DNA of 27,857 nt from a virus. Lineage: Duplodnaviria > Heunggongvirae > Uroviricota > Caudoviricetes. Of this stretch, positions 1,219 through 27,857 are shown piece by piece. The notes beneath the pieces were generated by a model. The model saw only the letters and a program-made list of their open reading frames with translations, was not told where the DNA came from and made no database searches. The stretch is from IMG/VR virus record IMGVR_UViG_2737471861_000021, one strand, 5' to 3'. Each line of letters starts with the position of its first letter. Within the stretch, counting starts at the first letter, position 1. The position numbers were made by a program, and so were the translations under genes.

Positions 1219-1258
1219 AGTAGATTATGCATGATGAATTTGATGGGTTTTGAATACT

Positions 1259-1285
1259 GCCGCCAACTATGGCGGCTTTATTTTG
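1259..1285 (+). terminator. Rho-independent terminator-like hairpin upstream of terS
   Basis: GCCGCCAACTATGGCGGC stem-loop followed by TTTATTTTG. It lies inside the long N-terminal extension of track ORF 1250..1960, which argues that extension is not coding. Confidence 0.5.
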
Positions 1286-1291
1286 CATGGT

Positions 1292-1320
1292 ACTATTACC
1301 ACAACGGTAACTATTACCAC
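1292..1320. repeat. Two 11-bp direct repeats (ACTATTACCAC) spaced 18 bp apart, just upstream of the terS start
   Basis: ACTATTACCAC at 1292-1302 and 1310-1320, seen directly. They produce the odd 'TITTTVTITTVV' translation in the track ORF. Confidence 0.5.
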
Positions 1321-1327
1321 GGTGGTT

Positions 1328-1960
1328 ATGATGCCTGCTGAACCTAAAACCTATAAACGCAAATCAACGCAATTTAAGCCGCTCACAGCAATGCAGGAGG
1401 CTTATTGCCAGTCATACATCAAAACGCCTGAAAACCAGACTCAGGCAGCGATTAACGCAGGATTCTCCCCAAATACAGCGGCAGTTAAAGCCAGTGTCAT
1501 GATGCGCGATGAACGCATTCAAAAACGGATTGCCGAGTTGATGGAGGAGCGCAACAAGCGCCTGCGCGTCAGTGCTGATTATGTCCTGCTGCGCCTGGTG
1601 GAAATCGACCAGATGGACGTGCTGGATATCCTGAACGATGACGGCGGGATGAAGCCGATCGCTGAATGGCCGAAGGTCTGGCGTACCTCTCTCAGTGCTA
1701 TGGATATCGCTACCATCAAGACGACCCAGGCTTCTCTGCAAAAAGAGAATGGCGAGGCGGATCTCTCTGTTGAGGATGTCGAGCATATCCTGAAGAAGGT
1801 GAAATGGCCCGACAAGGTGAAAAACCTCGAGCTCATCGGTAAGCACGTCGACGTTAACGCGTTCAAAGAGCGCCTGGATGTTAATGTGAATGTGACAATT
1901 GCTGATCGCATAGCGGCAGCCAGGAAGCGACTCAAAGAACGTCAGGATGGTAATCAGTGA
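1328..1960 (+). CDS. Terminase small subunit (Terminase_2-like)
   Basis: Internal Met start chosen downstream of the terminator hairpin (track ORF 1250..1960). The 'KPLTAMQEAYCQSYIKTPENQTQAAINAGFSPNTAAVKA' region looks like small-terminase HTH proteins (recollection). Stop overlaps the large-terminase GTG start. Confidence 0.6.
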   Translation: MMPAEPKTYKRKSTQFKPLTAMQEAYCQSYIKTPENQTQAAINAGFSPNTAAVKASVMMRDERIQKRIAELMEERNKRLRVSADYVLLRLVEIDQMDVLDILNDDGGMKPIAEWPKVWRTSLSAMDIATIKTTQASLQKENGEADLSVEDVEHILKKVKWPDKVKNLELIGKHVDVNAFKERLDVNVNVTIADRIAAARKRLKERQDGNQ

Positions 1961-3482: not shown

Positions 3483-3507
3483 AGCCAGCTCATAGGCTGG
3501 CTGTTTG
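3483..3507. terminator. Bidirectional terminator hairpin between convergent genes
   Basis: AGCCAGC-tcatag-GCTGGCT stem-loop flanked by an A-run upstream and GTTTG downstream. Sits between terL (+) and the convergent 123-aa gene (-). Confidence 0.5.
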
Positions 3508-3519
3508 TGACATGTCACG
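3506..3519. repeat. Palindrome TGTGACATGTCACG, copy 2 of 3
   Basis: Identical 14-mer to copy 1; 4 bp beyond the stop of the minus-strand 123-aa gene and abutting the terminator hairpin. Confidence 0.7.
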
Positions 3520-3522
3520 GTG

Positions 3523-3894
3523 TTATTGCTCGCTTAACTTCTGCTTCAGCAAGTAACCTTCAAGCATCCAGATTTTGTTTACAGCATTCTGCCGGGCAAT
3601 CTTCCGACCAATTTCTGCATCAAAGTTTTCCGGGCTTGCACAGGCGCTCTCTCCGGTGACGGTGAAGCCGTTGCGCAGCACCAGGACGCAGAACGTCAGC
3701 AGAGAAAGTGATTCGTGCGGCTGGTAGTTTACCTCTCCGCCAGTATGTTTCGCTTTTATGGATTTGCCAAAGGCACCATCTTCTGCTGTGAAATATGCCT
3801 CCTGAGCAATAATGCCTTCGATATGGTCTGGCGTAACGCGCGGTGCCGTTTTGCCTTTCTCAACGATTTCTTTTTCGATTTGCTGGTCGTTCAT
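3523..3894 (-). CDS. Conserved hypothetical phage protein, reverse-oriented cargo gene (possibly N4 gp49/Sf6 gp66-like)
   Basis: 123-aa ORF on the minus strand with a strong RBS (AAGGTGAG) before its ATG. Opposite orientation to all flanking structural genes. Family guess is recollection only. Confidence 0.55.
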   Translation of the reverse strand: MNDQQIEKEIVEKGKTAPRVTPDHIEGIIAQEAYFTAEDGAFGKSIKAKHTGGEVNYQPHESLSLLTFCVLVLRNGFTVTGESACASPENFDAEIGRKIARQNAVNKIWMLEGYLLKQKLSEQ

Positions 3895-4092: not shown

Positions 4093-4169
4093 TGGCGTGG
4101 CATGCAGGATTCGAACCTGCGACCAACCGCTTAGAAGGCGGTTGCTCTGTCCAACTGAGCTAATGCCAC
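4093..4169 (-). tRNA. tRNA-Arg (anticodon UCU)
   Basis: Minus-strand 77-nt sequence GTGGCATTAGCTCAGTTGGACAGAGCAACCGCCTTCTAAGCGGTTGGTCGCAGGTTCGAATCCTGCATGCCACGCCA folded by hand into a cloverleaf: 7-bp acceptor stem, GCTC/GAGC D-stem, anticodon loop CUUCUAA (UCU), GCAGG-TTCGAAT-CCTGC T-arm, encoded CCA. Closely resembles E. coli argU as I recall it. Confidence 0.85.
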
Positions 4170-4596
4170 AACGCTGAGAGCACTTAGCCTGTTAAGGCAC
4201 CACACTTTGTCGCGGCTCCATAAATGCTCTCATCGTTGTACCCTCGTCTCTTCCGAGGCGTCACACCGAATCGCCGGGATGGTGAATCCCCGTGCGCGGA
4301 ATAAAACCGCTCGACTTGCACATTCCGGCTACCTGGTTCGTTTGCCCGAGCAAGGGAGGGTGCCCCTTAAACGTATCCAGACCGCTATCGGCGCATGTGC
4401 CATACGCCGTACTGCTCAAAATAAAAGCTCACTCCACCTGTTCAATTTAACGACAAGCCAGTCAGGTTAGTAACCGGAATGAACTCTTTGGTTACCTGAA
4501 AGGTAATAATTTGTGCGTTAAATGTCAACTATCTACGATAAATAAATCATATGTGGTTAAATTGGTAATAATTTAATTGCGTACGGAGTCATTGAT

Positions 4597-6497: not shown

Positions 6498-6790
6498 CAG
6501 ATTACGAAGACGATCAACTGAAAGAAGAAAACGACCGTAAGCAACGTGACATGGCACAGCGTGAAATTGATGACATTCGCTTTGTCATGAGCAGTGAACA
6601 GGGGCGTCGAGTTGTCTGGTCGGTGCTGGAGAAAGGCCGTGTGTTTTCCGCTATCTCGCCGATGGACGCTATGGCAATGGCATTTAATGAGGGGCAACGC
6701 AATCTGGCGCTGGAACTGTTTCAGCGCGTTATGGCGCATTGCCCTGAACAGTATTTGAAGATGGCCAAAGAGGCCAGTGAACAGGAGTGA
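6494..6790 (+). CDS. Small head-assembly-associated protein, function unknown
   Basis: 98-aa acidic ORF translationally coupled to both portal and scaffold genes. Confidence 0.5.
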   Translation: MTDYEDDQLKEENDRKQRDMAQREIDDIRFVMSSEQGRRVVWSVLEKGRVFSAISPMDAMAMAFNEGQRNLALELFQRVMAHCPEQYLKMAKEASEQE

Positions 6791-7496: not shown

Positions 7497-8489
7497 ATGA
7501 CAATGGCTGTTAAAGGCTTAACTGCGCTAACGCTGGCTGACTGGGGTAAGCGCGTCGATCCAAACGGGAAAGTCGATAAGATTATCGAGCTTCTCGGTCA
7601 AACTAACCCGATCCTTCAGGATATGCCTTTTGTCGAAGGGAACCTTCCTACCGGACACCGAACCACCATTCGTTCTGGTTTACCTTCAGCTACCTGGCGT
7701 TTGCTGAACTATGGCGTACAGCCAAGCAAATCAACCACAGTGCAGGTAACCGATTCCGTTGGCATGCTGGAAACCTATGCTGAAGTCGATAAGTCACTGG
7801 CTGATCTGAACGGTAATACCGCCGAATTCCGCCTGTCTGAAGACCGCGCATTTATTGAAGCGATGAATCAGCAGATGGCGCAGACACTGTTTTATGGTGA
7901 TTCCAGCGTTAACCCTCAGCAGTTTATGGGACTGTCCTCCCGCTATTCCAGCCTGTCTGCGGGTAATGCTCAGAACATCATTGATGCTGGTGGCACGGGT
8001 ACAGATAACACCTCAATCTGGTTAGTGGTGTGGGGCGAAAACACCGTGCATGGCATCTTCCCGAAAGGGCAGAAGGCTGGCATCCAGATGGAAGATAAAG
8101 GCCAGGTGACACTGGAAGATGCGAATGGCGGCAAGTACGAAGGCTACCGTACCCATTACAAATGGGACAACGGACTTGCTCTGCGTGACTGGCGTTATGT
8201 TGTTCGCATTGCAAACATCGATGTCAGCAATCTTTCAGAACCTTCCTCTGCCGCAAATATTGCGAAGTTGATGGTTAAAGCACTGCATCGCATTCCAAAT
8301 CGTGGCATGGGTCGCCCGGTGTTCTACATGAACCGCACTGTAGGCCAGGCTCTTGATCTGCAATCTCTGGAGAAAACATCTCTGGCGATCAGCGTAAAAG
8401 AGACAGAAGGCGAGTGGTGGACTTCATTCCGTGGTGTACCAATCCGTGAAACTGATGCGCTTCTGGAAACAGAAGCCCGCGTGGTGTAA
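7497..8489 (+). CDS. Major capsid protein
   Basis: 330-aa ORF with a strong RBS, following the scaffold gene and followed by a hairpin. Size and position match the major capsid protein of epsilon15-like or T7-like heads. Confidence 0.75.
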   Translation: MTMAVKGLTALTLADWGKRVDPNGKVDKIIELLGQTNPILQDMPFVEGNLPTGHRTTIRSGLPSATWRLLNYGVQPSKSTTVQVTDSVGMLETYAEVDKSLADLNGNTAEFRLSEDRAFIEAMNQQMAQTLFYGDSSVNPQQFMGLSSRYSSLSAGNAQNIIDAGGTGTDNTSIWLVVWGENTVHGIFPKGQKAGIQMEDKGQVTLEDANGGKYEGYRTHYKWDNGLALRDWRYVVRIANIDVSNLSEPSSAANIAKLMVKALHRIPNRGMGRPVFYMNRTVGQALDLQSLEKTSLAISVKETEGEWWTSFRGVPIRETDALLETEARVV

Positions 8490-10303: not shown

Positions 10304-12774
10304 TGGCTATCAGTTGGATCCAGCCCAGCTTTGCCGGTGGTGAGATTGGACCGTCGTTGTACGGTCGTATCGACATGGCGAAGTACCAGGTGGCATTGCG
10401 CAAGTGCGATAACTTTATCGTGCGGCAGTATGGCGGCGTTGAGAATCGACCTGGTACGCGTTTTGTCGGTGCCGCCAAATACCCAAATCGGAAATGCCGC
10501 CTGATCCCGTTCCAGTTCTCGACGGTTCAGACCTACGCTCTGGAGTTCGGACACCAGTACATGCGCGTTATCAAAGATGGTGCGTTGGTGCTGAACAGCA
10601 GCAATGTTATTTATGAAATTGCCACACCATATACTGAAGCCGATCTGTTCCGAATTAAATTCACGCAAAGCGCCGACGTGCTTACGCTGGTTCATCCGGC
10701 ATACCCGCCGAAAGAGTTGCGCCGCTATGCGCATGACAACTGGCAACTGGTTGATGTGGTAACGAAGAACGGGCCATTTGAAGATATCAATATTGACGAG
10801 TCAGTGACGGTTTATGCCAGCGCCAGCACCGGGACAATTACGTTAACGGCAAGCGCCTCTATTTTTGGCGCGGAGCAAGTAGGCAAATTGTTCTATCTGG
10901 AACAGCCTGCAGTGGATTTAGCACCGGTATGGGAAACCAGTAAGAGTACGTCGATTGGCGATATTCGCCGTGCAGACAGTAACTACTATCGCGCCGTTAC
11001 AGCAGGCAAAACAGGTACTTTGCGCCCTTCGCATACAGAAGGCACATCATGGGATGGCTGGGGCGGATCCGGTGATGATGATACTGGCATTGAGTGGGAG
11101 TATCTGCACAGTGGTTTTGGCATTGCCCGTATCACTGCTGCAAATGGCACTACTGCAACTGCCGAGGTAATTTCCTATATCCCTTCGCAGGTCGTTGGCG
11201 AGGATAATGCCAGCTATAAATGGGCTAAATATGCTTGGAACAGTGTTAATGGCTATCCTGGCACTGTTGTTTATTATCAACAACGTCTTTACTTCGCCGC
11301 ATCGACTGCGTTCCCTCAGACTATCTGGGCCAGCCGTACTGGGGATTATAAGGATTTTGGCAAAAGCAATCCTACGCAGGATGATGACAGAATTATCTAC
11401 ACCTATGCCGGGCGTCAGGTTAATGAGATCCGCCACCTGATTGATGTTGGTTCGCTGGTGGCGCTGACTTCCGGAGGTGAGTACGTCATCACCGGCGACC
11501 AGAACAAAGTATTAACCCCATCATCATTTGCATTCAGCTCTCAGGGATCAAATGGCTCGAGCAATGTCCCACCAATTGCCGTGGCGAATATTGCTCTGTT
11601 CGTCCAGGAGAAAGGCAGTGTTGTCCGTGATCTGGCCTACTCATTCGATGTTGACGGTTATCAGGGGAACGACCTTACTATCCTTGCCAATCATCTTTTT
11701 CAGAAGCACAGAATTGTTGACTGGTGCTTCTCGATTGTCCCTTACTCTAGTGCCTTCTGCATTCGTGATGACGGTAAATTACTGGTGATGACCTATTTGC
11801 GTGATCAGCAGGTTTTTGCATGGGCACCACAATCCAGTACCGGAAAATATGAAAGCACATGCAGTATCAGCGAAGGAAATGAAGATGCGGTGTATTTCGT
11901 CGTTAACCGAACCGTTAACGGGCAAACAGTGAGATACATCGAGAGACTGTCCAGCCGTTTATTTACCAGCGATGAAGATGCTTTCTTTGTTGATTCTGGC
12001 CTTAGCTATGATGGAAGAAATACGTCTGACAGAACGATGATCATCACTGGTGGTTCTGGTGAATGGGATTACCGCGCGGAATATACAATCAGTGTTTCTG
12101 GTGGTGCGTACTTCACCAGTAGTGATGTCGGTGCGCAACTACAGTTCCCTTATACCGGAACTGTTCCTGATACTGGCGATGAAGTGTCAAAAGAATTACG
12201 TTGCGACATTATTTCTGTAACCAGCAATACCGCTGTAGTGGTTCGTGCTAACAGGAACGTCCCGCCATCCCTCAGGAATGTGGCCACCACGAACTGGCAG
12301 ATGGCGCGCCGGACATTTGGAGGCCTGTCTCATCTTGAAGGCCAGACCGTAAACATTCTCTCTGATGCGAACGTGGAACCACAGAAAGTGGTTTCCGGAG
12401 GTGCCGTCACGCTGGAATCTCCGGGGGCTGTAGTGCACATCGGCCTGCCAATAACTGCTGAATTCGAAACACTGGATATCAACATTAACGGACAGGAAAC
12501 GCTGCTGGACAAAAAACAGGTGATCCCCTCCGTTACTCTGGTTGTGAATGCCAGTCGCGGCATCTGGGCGACTACGCCCGGCGGTAAATGGTACGAATAT
12601 CCACAGCGTGAATTCGAGTTCTACGATGATCCTGTTGATGATGCTACCGGAAAAGTAGAAGTGAAACTGGACAGTAACTGGGGCAAAAACGGACGTGTAA
12701 AAATCCGTCAGCTTGATCCGTTGCCGCTGTCTGTTCTTGCCGTTATTCCTCGCCTTACTGTTGGGGGATTCTGA
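10303..12774 (+). CDS. Tail tubular protein B / nozzle (T7 gp12-like)
   Basis: 823-aa ORF after the adaptor gene; size and order match a podovirus nozzle protein. Confidence 0.55.
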   Translation: MAISWIQPSFAGGEIGPSLYGRIDMAKYQVALRKCDNFIVRQYGGVENRPGTRFVGAAKYPNRKCRLIPFQFSTVQTYALEFGHQYMRVIKDGALVLNSSNVIYEIATPYTEADLFRIKFTQSADVLTLVHPAYPPKELRRYAHDNWQLVDVVTKNGPFEDINIDESVTVYASASTGTITLTASASIFGAEQVGKLFYLEQPAVDLAPVWETSKSTSIGDIRRADSNYYRAVTAGKTGTLRPSHTEGTSWDGWGGSGDDDTGIEWEYLHSGFGIARITAANGTTATAEVISYIPSQVVGEDNASYKWAKYAWNSVNGYPGTVVYYQQRLYFAASTAFPQTIWASRTGDYKDFGKSNPTQDDDRIIYTYAGRQVNEIRHLIDVGSLVALTSGGEYVITGDQNKVLTPSSFAFSSQGSNGSSNVPPIAVANIALFVQEKGSVVRDLAYSFDVDGYQGNDLTILANHLFQKHRIVDWCFSIVPYSSAFCIRDDGKLLVMTYLRDQQVFAWAPQSSTGKYESTCSISEGNEDAVYFVVNRTVNGQTVRYIERLSSRLFTSDEDAFFVDSGLSYDGRNTSDRTMIITGGSGEWDYRAEYTISVSGGAYFTSSDVGAQLQFPYTGTVPDTGDEVSKELRCDIISVTSNTAVVVRANRNVPPSLRNVATTNWQMARRTFGGLSHLEGQTVNILSDANVEPQKVVSGGAVTLESPGAVVHIGLPITAEFETLDININGQETLLDKKQVIPSVTLVVNASRGIWATTPGGKWYEYPQREFEFYDDPVDDATGKVEVKLDSNWGKNGRVKIRQLDPLPLSVLAVIPRLTVGGF

Positions 12775-13238
12775 TGATCGATGTTCAAATTATTCCCGCA
12801 ACCGAAGAGCATCTTCAGATGATTTTGCCGGATGTTCGTCAGGCTGATATTGACGAACTGTATGCGGTATCGCTGATGACTACCGAAGATGCGCTGCGTG
12901 TTGGTCTTCGCACTGCGACTATGGCCTGGTCAGGGTTCGCGAACGGAGAACTGGTAACCATGTTTGGTGTATCTCCGGCGTCAATGATCGGTGGCAATGG
13001 TACGCCCTGGCTGGTAGGAACCAGCCGTATTGAAAAATATCAGAAGACATTTCTTCGCCACTGCCGCCCTGTATTGCAGCAGATGCTGGCAGTTTATCCG
13101 CGCCTGGAAAACTACGTCGACGAGCGAAACCATGTTGCCAAAGCATGGCTGCACTGGCTTGGATTCAGGCTTGAAGAAGCCGCGCCTTATGGTGCTCTTG
13201 GTCTTAATTTCCACAGATTTCACATGGAGAGAAAATAA
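12774..13238 (+). CDS. Virion-associated protein, function unknown
   Basis: 154-aa ORF translationally coupled (TGATG) to the nozzle gene. Confidence 0.45.
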   Translation: MIDVQIIPATEEHLQMILPDVRQADIDELYAVSLMTTEDALRVGLRTATMAWSGFANGELVTMFGVSPASMIGGNGTPWLVGTSRIEKYQKTFLRHCRPVLQQMLAVYPRLENYVDERNHVAKAWLHWLGFRLEEAAPYGALGLNFHRFHMERK

Positions 13239-18107: not shown

Positions 18108-20582
18108 ATGAGACAGGAATGTATACAGGCGGTTCAGCAGGCGGCGCAGCGCATGTTAACGGCGCGAGAAATACAGAACATTGAAGACCGCATTTATCGA
18201 AATATGCGCTCCATTGCTCGTGATGACCCGATGTCGTGGCGACAACTTTCCGAATCAGATCGGCTATATCGAGCAGCACAATTGGCATCTGAAGAATTAC
18301 AGCGAGAAGCGGCATTAAAGAAACGTCGTGTGGCTCTCACTATAGCCGCGCGTCAGAGATTGGATAAATTTATCAATAGCTATCAAGGGGCTGATGGGAA
18401 ACTTGGCGCTCTTAACCGTACTATAGCTTTTAATGCAGACGGTAAATCTAATTTCCTCTCTGTTGAATCCAGAACAAAAGCCACCCGTGATTATGCATTG
18501 AGTCAATTGCAGGAGGCATTCGAAGCAGTTGATCCTCGCTTTTTTGGTCTGTTTGAAGATGAAGCGGGCGTACGTGACCTGGTATATGAAATGCGGGGGC
18601 AAAATACTGGCAATGCTAAAGCAAGAAAAGGTGCTAAGGCGTGGAGAGAAGTTACAGAGCTGCTGCGCCGCCGGTTTAATGATGCTGGTGGGGACATTGG
18701 CTATCTCGAAAACTGGGGGATCCCTCAACATCATTCTATGGAAAAGGTTGGGGCGGTATCAAAGGATAAGTGGGTTAACGATGTTATAGGTAAGCTGGAT
18801 CGCAAATATTATACCCGAGCCGATGGACAACTGATGAACGATGCCGAGTTGTCTGCATTTCTTGGAGAGGCTTATAACACGATCGCTACTGGTGGGCTGA
18901 ATAAGCTTACTGATACCGGAATGCGAATTTCCGGCGCACGTGCTAACCGTGGTAATGCATCACGACAGATACATTTCAAAGATGCTGATTCCTATCTCCA
19001 ATATCAACAACTTTATGGCGATCGCTCTCTATGGGAAATCATGGTCGGTCACCTGGAAGGTATCAGTAAAGATATTGCTCTGGTGGAAACATATGGTCCA
19101 AACCCCGATCATGTTTTCCGCTCCCTTCTTGATCAGGTTAAGGCAGAAACGGCAACAGCTAACCCGAGTAAAACCGGTAAAGTCGAGCGGCTGGCGAACA
19201 ACACAGAGAATCTGTACAACTTTATTTCCGGAAAGACACAGCCTGTAGCGAATCCGCACATCGCGCGATGGTCTGACAATATCCGCAACTGGCTGGTTGC
19301 CAGCAGACTCGGATCCGCGTTGCTGTCATCGTTCTCTGATCTTGGAACCATGTATCTGTCTGCGAAGGTGACCAACCTTCCGATGAACCAGTTATTCCGC
19401 AACCAGCTTGAAGCTATGGACCCAACGAACCGTACTGAGCTTGCGCGGGCGCGCCGCGCTGGTCTGGCGATGGAATCTCTACTTGGCAGCGTTAACCGCT
19501 GGGCGATGGATAATATGGGGCCGTCTGTGTCTCGTTGGGCTGCAACGGCGGTAATGCGTGCCAGTGGGCTTACAGCATGGTCAGATGCGCACAAGCGCGC
19601 CTATGGCGTAACCATGATGGGAAGCCTGGGAGAAGTAGTGTCACGGACACCAGACCTTCGTAGCCTCGATGACTCTGATTTTCGTATCCTGAAAAGCAAA
19701 GGGATTACTGACACAGACTGGAGCGTATGGAAGTTGGCGCAACAGGAGGACTGGGGGAACGGTAATAATACGATGCTGACACCGGAAAGCATTATGCGTA
19801 TCCCTGATTCAGCAGTTAAACATCTTGGTGAGCCTGAACGCGTGAAATTTGAGGCAATGCGTAAACTGCTCGGTGCCGTAACTGAAGAAGTTGATATGGC
19901 TGTTATTACACCGGGAGCACGTGAGCAACTGATAACCGGTTCTGGTATTCAGCGTGGAACATGGAAAGGTGAATTAACGAGAAGTGTTTTCCTGTTTAAA
20001 TCGTTCCCTATCTCGGTTGTTATGCGTCACTGGTCACGCGCTATGGGTATGCCGTCTGCTGGTGGGCGTGCGGCATATATTGCGACGTTTATTGCCAGTA
20101 CGACCATTCTTGGCGCTTTGTCGCAGCAACTTAACGACCTTGCGTCTGGTCGTAATCCTCGAGAGATGACAGGAGAAGATGCCGCAAAATTCTGGCTTGG
20201 TGCTCTACTGAAAGGTGGTGGCCTTGGCCTTTACGGTGATTTTTTGTTGTCAGATCACACGAGGTACGGAAGCGGTGCGCTGGCATCAATGCTTGGTCCG
20301 GTAGCCGGTCTGGTTGATGACGTAGTGAAGATAGCTCAGGGCATACCACTAAATGCTGTGGAAGGGAAGAACGAGCAGACTGGTGGTGATCTGGTGAAAC
20401 TTGGGAAAGGGCTGATGCCAGGTGCGAATCTCTGGTACTTGAAGGCAGCTCTTGATCACATGATCTTTAACCAGATGCAGGAGTATTTTTCACCAGGCTA
20501 TTTGCGTAAAATGGAGCAACGTTCGAAGAAAGAGTTTAACCAGACATACTGGTGGCGACCACAGGATGTCACTCCGCAATAA
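18108..20582 (+). CDS. Large internal core / ejection protein
   Basis: 824-aa ORF, last large gene of the core block, with hydrophobic segments near the C-terminus. Confidence 0.6.
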   Translation: MRQECIQAVQQAAQRMLTAREIQNIEDRIYRNMRSIARDDPMSWRQLSESDRLYRAAQLASEELQREAALKKRRVALTIAARQRLDKFINSYQGADGKLGALNRTIAFNADGKSNFLSVESRTKATRDYALSQLQEAFEAVDPRFFGLFEDEAGVRDLVYEMRGQNTGNAKARKGAKAWREVTELLRRRFNDAGGDIGYLENWGIPQHHSMEKVGAVSKDKWVNDVIGKLDRKYYTRADGQLMNDAELSAFLGEAYNTIATGGLNKLTDTGMRISGARANRGNASRQIHFKDADSYLQYQQLYGDRSLWEIMVGHLEGISKDIALVETYGPNPDHVFRSLLDQVKAETATANPSKTGKVERLANNTENLYNFISGKTQPVANPHIARWSDNIRNWLVASRLGSALLSSFSDLGTMYLSAKVTNLPMNQLFRNQLEAMDPTNRTELARARRAGLAMESLLGSVNRWAMDNMGPSVSRWAATAVMRASGLTAWSDAHKRAYGVTMMGSLGEVVSRTPDLRSLDDSDFRILKSKGITDTDWSVWKLAQQEDWGNGNNTMLTPESIMRIPDSAVKHLGEPERVKFEAMRKLLGAVTEEVDMAVITPGAREQLITGSGIQRGTWKGELTRSVFLFKSFPISVVMRHWSRAMGMPSAGGRAAYIATFIASTTILGALSQQLNDLASGRNPREMTGEDAAKFWLGALLKGGGLGLYGDFLLSDHTRYGSGALASMLGPVAGLVDDVVKIAQGIPLNAVEGKNEQTGGDLVKLGKGLMPGANLWYLKAALDHMIFNQMQEYFSPGYLRKMEQRSKKEFNQTYWWRPQDVTPQ

Positions 20583-20738: not shown

Positions 20739-20752
20739 TGTGACATGTCACA
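20739..20752. repeat. Palindrome TGTGACATGTCACA, copy 3 of 3 (perfect 14-bp palindrome)
   Basis: Seen directly; lies between the small membrane ORF stop and the GC hairpin. Confidence 0.7.
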
Positions 20753-20768
20753 GGCCGCTTTCGCGGCC
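20753..20768. terminator. GC-rich hairpin between convergent transcription units
   Basis: GGCCGC-TTTC-GCGGCC stem-loop between the + strand core operon and the minus-strand small gene; U-tract is weak. Confidence 0.35.
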
Positions 20769-21054: not shown

Positions 21055-21070
21055 CTGTATATTTATACAG
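21055..21070 (-). promoter_or_regulatory. LexA (SOS) box
   Basis: CTGTATATTTATACAG is a perfect CTGT-N8-ACAG with an AT-rich spacer. The extended 20-mer AACTGTATATTTATACAGTA closely matches the E. coli consensus TACTGTATATATATACAGTA. It sits just upstream of the minus-strand small gene. Confidence 0.7.
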
Positions 21071-21228
21071 TAGCAAATAATTTGTTTGCTATCCAGCACG
21101 TTTTGCAAATTACCCGAAAGGTAATATCTATTCATATTCACAGTCTTTCTATCCATATGTGGTTTTTCAGGTAATAGAATAACCAGATATGCGGCGCAAC
21201 GGGTGCTGCGACTATCTGGAGATTTAAC

Positions 21229-24585: not shown

Positions 24586-24777
24586 TTTTAGTTTCCATAT
24601 TATATTCCAGTATTAGCTGCATGCAGAACCATTTTCCTATGGACGGCAGCATTGTATCACCCAGGGGGTAATTTCGGTAGGGGTATTCTTAGGTAATACA
24701 TATCCATATATGGTTTATTGTGTATGATGTACTCACCAACTAAGGGGGTTCTTTATGCACATTAAACGGTGGTCATA

Positions 24778-26786: not shown

Positions 26787-27326
26787 TTAATTAAACCAGC
26801 TGTCCGATTTGTTCTCTTCTGCTTTGCCCACGCTTTTCATCAGATCGCGACCGCCTTCAGTCATATTTCTGTTGGCGTCAGCTTCAGATTGCACCACATC
26901 GGTTTGCGCAGCTTTGTGCTTCAGTTCCTGATCGATAAATTCGTTTTCTCGCTTAACGCGGGCTTCTTCTTTTGCCAGCGCCAGTTTTTGTTTCTGAATC
27001 TCTAAGCTGCGTAGCTCATCTTCATAACTTTGATCGCGTTTTTTGTCCGCAGAGGCTTCGGCGTCCAGTTTATCCTGACGAGCTTTCTTATTTGCCGCTG
27101 CCGTTGCCGCTCTTTTGTTAGCGGCGGCCTGGGCATTTGCGCGACGTTGCTTCTCTTGCTGGATTTCCCTGTTGCGCTCCGCGACCCATTCGTCATGCTG
27201 CCTTTGCTCTTCATTTTTACCTTGCTGTTCAGCTTCTGCTACAGCAGAGAGTTGATCCTGCAATGATGAGGCGATAGCCGGATAGCTTAAGGAGGCCAAG
27301 ATGGCGCAAAGAAAAACTTTCTTCAT
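26787..27326 (-). CDS. Secreted/periplasmic coiled-coil protein, function unknown
   Basis: 179 aa with a signal peptide (MKKVFLCAILASLSYPAIASS) and a highly charged Ala/Lys/Glu/Gln-rich helical remainder; RBS present. Confidence 0.6.
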   Translation of the reverse strand: MKKVFLCAILASLSYPAIASSLQDQLSAVAEAEQQGKNEEQRQHDEWVAERNREIQQEKQRRANAQAAANKRAATAAANKKARQDKLDAEASADKKRDQSYEDELRSLEIQKQKLALAKEEARVKRENEFIDQELKHKAAQTDVVQSEADANRNMTEGGRDLMKSVGKAEENKSDSWFN

Positions 27327-27341
27327 GACTCCTCCTGATTA

Positions 27342-27857
27342 TTAGCTCTTTTCAGGACATTTAGTATTTGGCTGAATACGCGTTTCGTTATACGTTGTGG
27401 TAATAACAACGGCTAAACCTGTCGTAAACTGGCACTCTTTACCCACCTGGGTAGAGGTATACACTTTGGTGCCTTCCTTATATGTTAAAGAAACACCTTC
27501 CACTAAGGTTTTATCATTCACCATAGAACCCACTGCCGCGCCTACAGCTCCGCCGCCAACTGCCCCTGCCGTCGTTCCGGAATTGCTGCCAGAACCGACG
27601 TTGTGGCCGATAACACCGCCAGCGACTGCGCCAATAAGCGCGCCGAAGGCTTGTGCGTTCCGTTTATTTTGGGAGTTGTCTACGGCAACTTTTGCGGGAA
27701 GAATGGAAATAATATTAACGGTTTTAGTTTCTTGTTTGGTATTCAGTTGATCGGTTTGATAAACATCGGCGGCATGATCGTCAGCATTTGACTGGCATCC
27801 TGCCAGAGTGAATGACGCTAACATTGCCACAGGCAGAAGACATTTTTTAAATTTCAT
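27342..27857 (-). CDS. Outer-membrane lipoprotein with a glycine-zipper domain (YcfJ/SlyB/17-kDa-antigen-like)
   Basis: 171 aa. Signal peptide plus lipobox (LAGC) and a Gly-zipper segment 'GALIGAVAGGVIGHNVGSG...GGGAVGAAVGS' resembling YcfJ/SlyB-type lipoproteins (recollection). Its start codon is the last triplet of the window. Confidence 0.65.
   Translation of the reverse strand: MKFKKCLLPVAMLASFTLAGCQSNADDHAADVYQTDQLNTKQETKTVNIISILPAKVAVDNSQNKRNAQAFGALIGAVAGGVIGHNVGSGSNSGTTAGAVGGGAVGAAVGSMVNDKTLVEGVSLTYKEGTKVYTSTQVGKECQFTTGLAVVITTTYNETRIQPNTKCPEKS

Follow-up and report, generated by a model that had tools for sequence, protein, structure and literature searches.

What lies between the last early gene of an epsilon15/phiV10-like prophage and its terminase genes, and how are those genes kept off and switched on? 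The question is raised by a hairpin and a repeated 11-bp sequence that stand immediately ahead of terS, the gene for the small terminase subunit, in a 27,857-nucleotide stretch of viral DNA from IMG/VR (IMGVR_UViG_2737471861_000021; this whole stretch is called the window below). The original prediction described a terminator hairpin followed by tandem direct repeats, and offered two functions for them: a read-through (antitermination) checkpoint for late transcription or a terminase-binding, packaging-related site. We arrive at a different reading, to which we give a probability of about three in four from comparison of sequences. The junction would be the terminator of the early operon placed back to back with a promoter for terS and terL that is guarded by the lysogeny repressor.

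Judged by its identity of 94–96 per cent to Escherichia phages ZX5, TL-2011b, PAS61, and O157 typing phages 9 and 10, the window is a prophage of the genus Uetakevirus (the epsilon15/phiV10-like group). Its genes run in the order DUF551, NinX, a gp49 homologue, terS, terL, a tRNA, portal, and further genes; the immunity region and the rep gene lie outside it. Of 5,426 complete E. coli genomes, about 500 carry the 141-bp terS leader, and the best match over 6 kb in the whole set is about 97 per cent identical. Two samples of relatives were used. One was anchored on TerS and comprised eighty loci, with one genome per species. The sixteen closest TerS loci in it span fourteen genera, including Klebsiella, Scandinavium, Citrobacter, Pseudocitrobacter, Erwinia, Superficieibacter, Kluyvera, Pseudescherichia, Buttiauxella, Rahnella, Samsonia, Pantoea, and others. 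For the other, IMG/VR was scanned with the hairpin sequence, and the 117 hits yielded thirty-eight distinct downstream leaders.

The true start of terS (1331–1960, + strand; Pfam Terminase_2, 1.6e-27) is the ATG at 1331. Phage records start the gene at the equivalent ATG, and the TerS N-terminus that follows from it (MPAEPK..KRKST) is conserved. An open reading frame from TTG 1250 also runs through the hairpin and the repeats and would yield MNTAANYGGFILHGTITTTVTITTVVMMPAEPK. The original prediction had judged this Thr/Ile-rich N-terminus of the six-frame ORF implausible, and it was right to do so: the relatives carry in-frame stops 3, 9, 21, or 39 nt upstream of the MPAEPK start, as well as leader indels of 1–2 nt that shift the frame. 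Given these differences and the conserved MPAEPK, the extension from TTG 1250 is, on comparative grounds, not coding, and the longer ORF is spurious. In one RefSeq E. coli genome, NCBI's automatic pipeline PGAP begins the gene at the TTG that corresponds to 1250. The point has some value for annotation, because a TTG start buries a terminator, a promoter, and two operators, as we interpret them below, inside the coding sequence of a very common prophage.

The hairpin (GCCGCCAACTATGGCGGC, 1259–1276) has the arms GCCGCC and GGCGGC around AACTAT and is followed directly by the T-tract TTTATTTT at 1277–1284. Seven pairs, six of them G-C and one A-T (A1265–T1270), join 1259–1265 to 1270–1276 and leave a loop of 4 nt (1266–1269). 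Folded with its flanks, the RNA reaches −15.8 kcal/mol (z = −6.55 against dinucleotide shuffles). The same stem forms from the reverse strand, but the U-tract is missing there, so the element is terminator-like on the + strand only. The whole element, A-rich 5′ flank included (1253–1284, + strand), has every sequence feature of an intrinsic (rho-independent) terminator. The predicted terminator hairpin is thus present just before the ATG at 1331, and the coordinates first given for hairpin and repeats were right to within 1–2 nt. The orthologous element of epsilon15, a stem_loop at 39646–39672 of NC_004775.2, is annotated ‘rho-independent terminator’ and reads GCCGCCGACTATGGCGGC-TTTGTTTT where the window has GCCGCCAACTATGGCGGC-TTTATTTT. 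We consider it very likely that the hairpin and T-tract form an intrinsic terminator closing the early-right operon, at which termination is predicted to be efficient.

What precedes the hairpin is as varied as would be expected for a terminator that closes whatever lies upstream. In the window it stands 50 nt past the stop of the co-oriented gp49 homologue, the last gene of the early-right operon (871–1209, + strand), which encodes 112 aa with a Cys-rich C-terminus and matches PHROG 536 at 1.5e-54. Across relatives the terminator is kept behind at least four different gene arrangements. The gp49 homologue is followed by a short remnant in the window and by another short spacer in Salmonella-type phages; in the remaining arrangements it is followed by one of two or three alternative small genes, the stop of which lies 6 nt before the hairpin. 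This segment, between gp49 and the hairpin, differs between epsilon15 and the window. The window's remnant (1211–1253, + strand) is non-functional and represents what a deletion of about 190 nt in its lineage left of the optional small gene, namely a 5′ end (ATG TCA CGA...) joined to a 3′ end (...GAT GAA TTT GAT GGG TTT TGA). Relatives carry the intact gene, of 75–85 aa, with a product that ends ...YDEFDGL, ...DDEFKLI, or ...EDEFKLE.

Attenuation by a leader peptide was first suggested by an eight-codon ORF at 1227–1253 (MHDEFDGF, then a stop), which stops 5 nt short of the hairpin and differs among four relatives mostly by synonymous changes. We rejected this candidate: the ORF is the leftover 3′ end of the optional gene, and 1-nt deletions that break it are common in relatives.

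Sequence conservation of the hairpin itself is strong. Across nine leader types, pairing holds in 96.8 per cent of the cells of the stem, with one compensatory replacement of G-C by A-U and two wobble changes. Four of the seven stem pairs are constant, and 111 of 500 shuffles score equally well on pairing, which is a weak covariation signal. In Rahnella the loop is different and one G-C pair is exchanged for A-U; in Buttiauxella two changes preserve G-U pairing on the + strand only. With a core that is near-invariant and a single compensatory pair, the hairpin may be conserved for a reason besides, or instead of, RNA structure. It is not universal: BUCT554, L013, L015, and a Klebsiella phage have no terminator here and instead carry a UmuD-like gene, controlled by a LexA box, inserted between the gp49 homologue and terS. 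These phages retain the promoter/operator module that follows.

That module begins 3 nt past the T-tract, between the terminator and terS, with the sequence TGGTACTAT (TGgTACTAT; 1288–1296, + strand). It has the form of an extended −10 sigma-70 element, which we call P_terS, with a predicted start near 1303. The pattern TGnTAnnAT stands in the same register before the first operator (O1, below) in 20 of 22 terS-anchored loci. In the thirty-eight IMG/VR leaders, −10 positions 1, 2, 5, and 6 (T, A, A, and T) are invariant and positions 3 and 4 and the base after the TG (−13) vary; the TG was fixed by the search pattern in this set and is an independent observation in the terS-anchored one. The hexamer takes the forms TACTAT, TAGTAT, TACCAT, TATTAT, and TAGAAT, and TATGAT in Rahnella. 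The conserved TG and −10 positions are those that matter for an extended −10 sigma-70 promoter. A consensus scan for sigma-70 promoters with both hexamers made no call at TGGTACTAT, which it missed because there is no −35 hexamer. TGnTAnnAT taken alone is a low-information pattern. On balance we lean towards TGGTACTAT being a dedicated terS promoter, which would start transcription near 1303 and give a leader of about 28 nt.

The 11-bp sequence ACTATTACCAC occurs exactly twice, at 1292–1302 and 1310–1320 (+ strand). Such a repeat is unusual, since the whole 27.9-kb window contains no more than two direct-repeat pairs with copies of 11 nt or longer lying within 40 nt of each other. The copies are not tandem, as they had been called, since they are spaced 18 bp from start to start with 7 bp between them. 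They are better understood through the seven annotated repressor sites of epsilon15, from which we derived the consensus ATTACC-N5-GGTAAT. Two palindromes ahead of terS each match it with one mismatch: O1, ATTACCACAACGGTAAC, at 1295–1311, and O2, ATTACCACGGTGGTTAT, at 1313–1329. The first repeat copy covers the end of the −10 hexamer and the left half-site of O1, and the second contains the left half-site of O2. In this alignment, the ‘direct repeat’ is the left half-sites of the two operators plus similar flanks. The flank of the second copy is variable in relatives (ACAATTACCAC in several), which makes the hexamer ATTACC, and not the 11-mer, the conserved unit. O1 overlaps the −10 element by two bases and covers the predicted start site. 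O2 overlaps the Shine-Dalgarno sequence GGTGG (1321–1325) and ends 2 nt before the terS ATG at 1331.

In epsilon15 both the hairpin and the operators are orthologous in position and sequence to those of the window. The counterpart of the O1 region is a protein_bind feature at 12–27 of NC_004775.2, annotated ‘repressor, lysogeny’; its operator reads ATTACCAAAACGGTAAT, against ATTACCACAACGGTAAC in the window, and both lie 36 nt from the terS ATG. O2 has one mismatch in the window versus two in epsilon15, and it is this closer fit to the consensus that makes the window's 11-bp repeat perfect. The RefSeq record of epsilon15 was opened exactly at the early/terS junction, with the terminator as its last feature and the repressor site as its first.

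An operator is found just upstream of terS in all sixteen of the closest TerS loci, at 35–38 nt from the ATG in most of them and at 21 nt in Rahnella-type loci, which have one operator only, with the Shine-Dalgarno sequence inside it. None of the sixty-four more distant TerS loci has the motif (5.5 kb scanned in each). All thirty-eight unique IMG/VR leaders share ATTACC and GGTAA without change; the right half-site ends in either C or T, and eleven forms of the five-base spacer occur. Fixed half-sites around a free spacer are the pattern expected of a protein-binding palindrome. O2 is the weaker of the two sites: in 33 of the 38 leaders its best match has 1–2 mismatches, and some lineages lack it.

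The same motif recurs throughout the window, which has six matches at no more than two mismatches where 0.75 are expected, a count not attained in any of 100 shuffles. The five best of them all fall between genes, in front of terS, the portal operon, the tailspike/antirepressor region, and the lysis genes. One copy, upstream of the gp3/portal operon (4491–4507), is syntenic with epsilon15 2931–2947, which is annotated ‘repressor’. A perfect copy in the divergent antirepressor/tailspike control region (21109–21125) is syntenic with epsilon15 19895–19911, and a copy with one mismatch upstream of the lysis cassette (24656–24672) has syntenic one-mismatch sites in epsilon15, PAT1, Tyrion, and BUCT554. 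An additional motif, CATATGTGGTTT, occurs in the other late units and is missing from the terS leader.

Related genomes extend this picture to the immunity region. At no more than one mismatch, where 0.04–0.07 copies are expected, the five complete relatives epsilon15, ZX5, PAT1, Tyrion, and BUCT554 have 9–12 syntenic copies each, and eight copies each are found in a Klebsiella prophage and in an E. coli prophage whose leader is 100 per cent identical to that of the window. In seven related genomes (the window itself being without an immunity region), the motif flanks the repressor gene on both sides, with two or three copies on its PL side and one or two between it and the cro-like gene. A further operator pair stands ahead of a RuvC/DUF1064 gene. 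Pairs come in two geometries, either adjacent (17–20 bp apart, as at terS and on the PR side of epsilon15) or exactly 62 bp apart, and both would suit a repressor able to occupy two palindromes simultaneously.

The repressors of the five complete relatives fall into two clades with an overall identity of only 43–47 per cent, and in all of them the segment NLVNRW of the N-terminal domain is unchanged. The match of the ZX5 repressor to SPC32H Rep (PDB 5D50) is at 4e-42, so that the relatives' repressors are homologous to the Rep of the SPC32H Rep/Ant lysis-lysogeny switch (Kim and Ryu 2013; Kim et al. 2016). SPC32H Rep is described as a tetramer that binds palindromic sites through DNA-binding domains paired across dimers (PMC9638917). 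In the window, a perfect LexA box lies beside the operator in the antirepressor control region. This box fits the LexA control of ant that Kim and Ryu are said to have described for SPC32H in 2013. The same operator occurs in every relative examined, including the Klebsiella, Enterobacter, Rahnella, and Pantoea prophages, which leaves a test of covariation between repressor specificity and the terS site without power. Given the database annotation of epsilon15 and the comparative evidence, we hold with considerable confidence that the repeat region consists of binding sites for the lysogeny repressor; Rep is predicted to bind at both O1 and O2.

The number and placement of these sites bear directly on the suggestion that the repeats serve packaging. 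The TerS of SPP1 recognizes repeated boxes that lie both within its own gene and ahead of it. If the repeats here were a comparable set of TerS binding sites (pac), their position directly upstream of terS would fit, as would the assignment of this TerS to Terminase_2, the family of the SPP1/SF6 small terminase (3ZQP is cited in the epsilon15 note). It is also here that several GenBank records of relatives begin. A pac site, however, is expected to be unique in the genome, and the hexamer belongs to a palindrome with 8–12 copies per genome that flanks the repressor gene and precedes lysis and tailspike genes. With several copies of the motif in the window and in every relative, the pac reading is unlikely. 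Nor do the record starts coincide: they fall after the gp49 stop, after the T-tract, and at the terS ATG, and being so scattered they look like annotation conventions and not mapped ends. A literature search found no mapping of virion DNA ends for Uetakevirus. The loss of O2 in some relatives also speaks against a packaging role. We therefore replace the predicted terminase-binding or packaging-related site, which we now regard as very improbable, with half-sites of an operator that recurs at least five times in the window and 8–12 times per related genome.

Inverted repeats so close to a start codon could also act as RNA. The transcript of 1210–1345 folds at −42.8 kcal/mol (z = −3.8), and a permissive Rfam scan gave a weak match to rseX over 1198–1283 (E = 0.14), so one might picture a leader hairpin, formed by the inverted repeats, that modulates terS translation, or a small RNA encoded at 1198–1283 that has the terminator hairpin as its end. 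Palindromic protein-binding sites fold as RNA automatically, however, and the variation seen in the leaders is of the wrong kind for an RNA structure, as the spacers (the would-be loops) vary freely and the half-sites are fixed and do not covary. In addition, 1211–1253 is the gene deletion remnant described above and tolerates 1-nt indels. Control at the RNA level accordingly seems to us scarcely probable. The rseX match was rejected at 27.8 bits versus a gathering score of 50, its similarity being mostly in the terminator stem and U-tract; at gathering thresholds, an Rfam scan of the window returned the tRNA at 4096–4169 alone.

A more serious competitor is regulated read-through, in which a phage factor suppresses termination at the hairpin for late transcription. 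The candidate factor is the gp49 homologue, for which epsilon15 gp49 and phrog_536 carry the label ‘transcriptional regulator’, and its candidate site is a 14-bp palindrome, TGTGACATGTCACG (1205–1218), that overlaps the gene's stop codon. Transcription would start in the early-right operon or at a promoter-like sequence, GTGACA-N18-CATGAT, at 1206–1235. The order of elements is then regulator gene, palindrome, terminator, and late genes, and it is well kept: the gp49 homologue lies upstream of the terminator in all sixty-two long IMG/VR loci, with the palindrome at its stop codon in sixty-one (the exception, L190, lost the stop by deletion). Exact or one-mismatch copies of the palindrome also occur beside two other G+C-rich hairpins, at 3506–3519 and 20739–20752, and at 6545, inside a gene. 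Moreover, a plain terminator would not require conservation as strict as that of the hairpin.

Several observations weigh against read-through. Between the hairpin and terS sits the conserved promoter-like element TGGTACTAT. The terminator itself is dispensable, being absent from the four phages named above. The gp49 homologue matched neither Q and antiterminator families nor any entry in Pfam, NCBIfam, or PDB. Its AlphaFold model (21 sequences) has a pLDDT of 57, too poor for a fold search; the start of this low-confidence model, beta-alpha-alpha, is reminiscent of a ribbon-helix-helix protein. As for the upstream start, the promoter match at 1206–1235 (9/12 to consensus) is at chance level, with four such matches found where 6.2 are expected, and the segment belongs to the gene remnant and is not the same in all relatives. 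Many relatives have an entire gene between the palindrome and the terminator, so that the two are not a fixed unit. The lambda PR′-qut-tR′/Q module likewise places a terminator after a regulator gene, where the late genes begin; it differs in that here there is no Q-family protein, no supported promoter just upstream, and a terminator that relatives can do without.

We conclude that regulated read-through is unlikely. The antitermination checkpoint of the original prediction is not needed, given a downstream promoter and a dispensable terminator, and the protein encoded upstream matches no antiterminator family. The narrower proposal that the 14-bp palindrome, TGTGACATGTCAC, is a binding site at which the gp49 homologue tunes termination or read-through at operon ends strikes us as more doubtful still. 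Were it true, gp49 and its palindrome would give this phage genus a previously undescribed way to time its late genes.

The reading we prefer, a terminator back to back with a repressor-guarded promoter, would work as follows. The terminator at 1259–1284 would stop transcription of the early genes, or of an optional inserted gene, before it reached terS. Three bases further on, the TGGTACTAT promoter would start the terS-terL transcript near 1303. In a lysogen, the lysogeny repressor, taken to be a helix-turn-helix tetramer homologous to SPC32H Rep and epsilon15 gp38, would cover the −10 element and start site when bound to O1 and the ribosome-binding site when bound to O2, and the terminase genes would be off. 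Inactivation of Rep by the antirepressor would then free the terS promoter.

Two known systems help to place this arrangement. The likeness to lambda cI at OR and OL lies in a 17-bp palindromic operator over a −10 element and start, with adjacent sites available for cooperative binding. Distant operator pairs could in addition support looping as in lambda, and pairs spaced by 62 bp recur in the relatives. The lambda repressor controls only early promoters, and the lambda late genes depend on Q, whereas the operator copies described here also front the packaging, portal, tailspike, and lysis units. In this they resemble the ‘stoperators’ of mycobacteriophage L5, which Brown and colleagues reportedly described in 1997 as gp71 sites found throughout the genome, asymmetric and dependent on orientation. 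Both phages have many repressor sites in short intergenic regions, among early as well as late genes, and here too elongation could in addition be blocked where a site lies beyond a source of transcription. The sites differ in that those of our phages are palindromic and that the one at terS overlaps a promoter-like element.

The control region ahead of terS is thus genuine, conserved, and ordinary, and its terminator and repressor site are already annotated in epsilon15. For these phages, the design it points to is one in which the lysogeny repressor would act directly where the packaging, portal, tailspike, and lysis units begin. With the repressor placed at terS, this layout would explain why terminase is silent in lysogens.

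PGAP places the start of terS in an E. coli prophage with an identical leader (NZ_CP033635.1; locus 12051-12725, corresponding to window positions 1250-1960) at an upstream TTG, and the resulting CDS takes in the terminator, the inferred promoter, and both operators. In the phage records, terS begins at the ATG that corresponds to 1331. The 5' end of the gene contains a tandem 10-bp repeat (ATAAACGCAA/ATCAACGCAA; 1353-1372), which encodes the conserved KRKST segment of TerS.

Several relatives carry a 109-aa gene between the gp49 homologue and terS, in the place of the terminator. This replacement is found in BUCT554 (7860-8189 and the region upstream), in a Klebsiella prophage (L211, 22140-22469), and in two other relatives that lack the terminator (L013 and L015). 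The gene is labelled UmuD-like in one record and had no match in Pfam; upstream of it are a promoter-like sequence and a LexA box. The window has a perfect LexA box of its own (CTGT-N8-ACAG, 21055-21070). It lies beside the perfect operator at 21109, and both precede an antirepressor-like gene on the minus strand. The Ant system of SPC32H is reportedly under LexA control, and the window's layout fits that system.

The window has several copies of a 14-bp palindrome, TGTGACATGTCAC(G/A), at the ends of operons (1205-1218, 3506-3519, and 20739-20752), and a further copy with one mismatch inside a gene (6545-6558). The first copy and the stop codon of the gp49 homologue overlap, the second lies 4 nt beyond a bidirectional hairpin (3483-3502), and the third directly abuts a G+C hairpin (20753-20768). 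ZX5 and IMG/VR relatives have the same arrangement, and in some relatives an optional small gene starts at the palindrome's central ATG. One IMG/VR variant (L190) has lost the stop codon, the palindrome, and the gene remnant to a deletion that joins the end of the gp49 homologue straight to the hairpin. The palindrome may act as a regulator site or as a sequence marking module boundaries.

Between terL and the portal operon, a minus-strand gene of the N4-gp49/Sf6-gp66 family (3523-3894) and a minus-strand tRNA gene (4096-4169) make up a variable inserted region with terminator-like hairpins on its flanks. At the other end of the window, two minus-strand ORFs follow the Rz-like gene (within 26787-27857), at a position where relatives have an integrase; this stretch is probably the prophage end plus host flank.

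A second conserved motif, CATATGTGGTT(T/A), lies 31-40 nt 3' of the operator before the portal operon, the tailspike gene, and the lysis cassette (4548-4559, 21154-21165, and 24705-24716, on the plus strand in every copy). Full genomes have a copy ahead of the RuvC/DUF1064 gene as well; the terS leader lacks the motif. It may function as part of a late promoter or as an activator element.

Every genome examined has operator pairs whose start points lie exactly 62 bp apart. Epsilon15 has such pairs at 32554/32616 and 35906/35968, ZX5 at 13047/13109 and 16108/16170, and PAT1, Tyrion, BUCT554, and the E. coli and Klebsiella prophages have them likewise. This spacing suggests looping by the tetrameric repressor.
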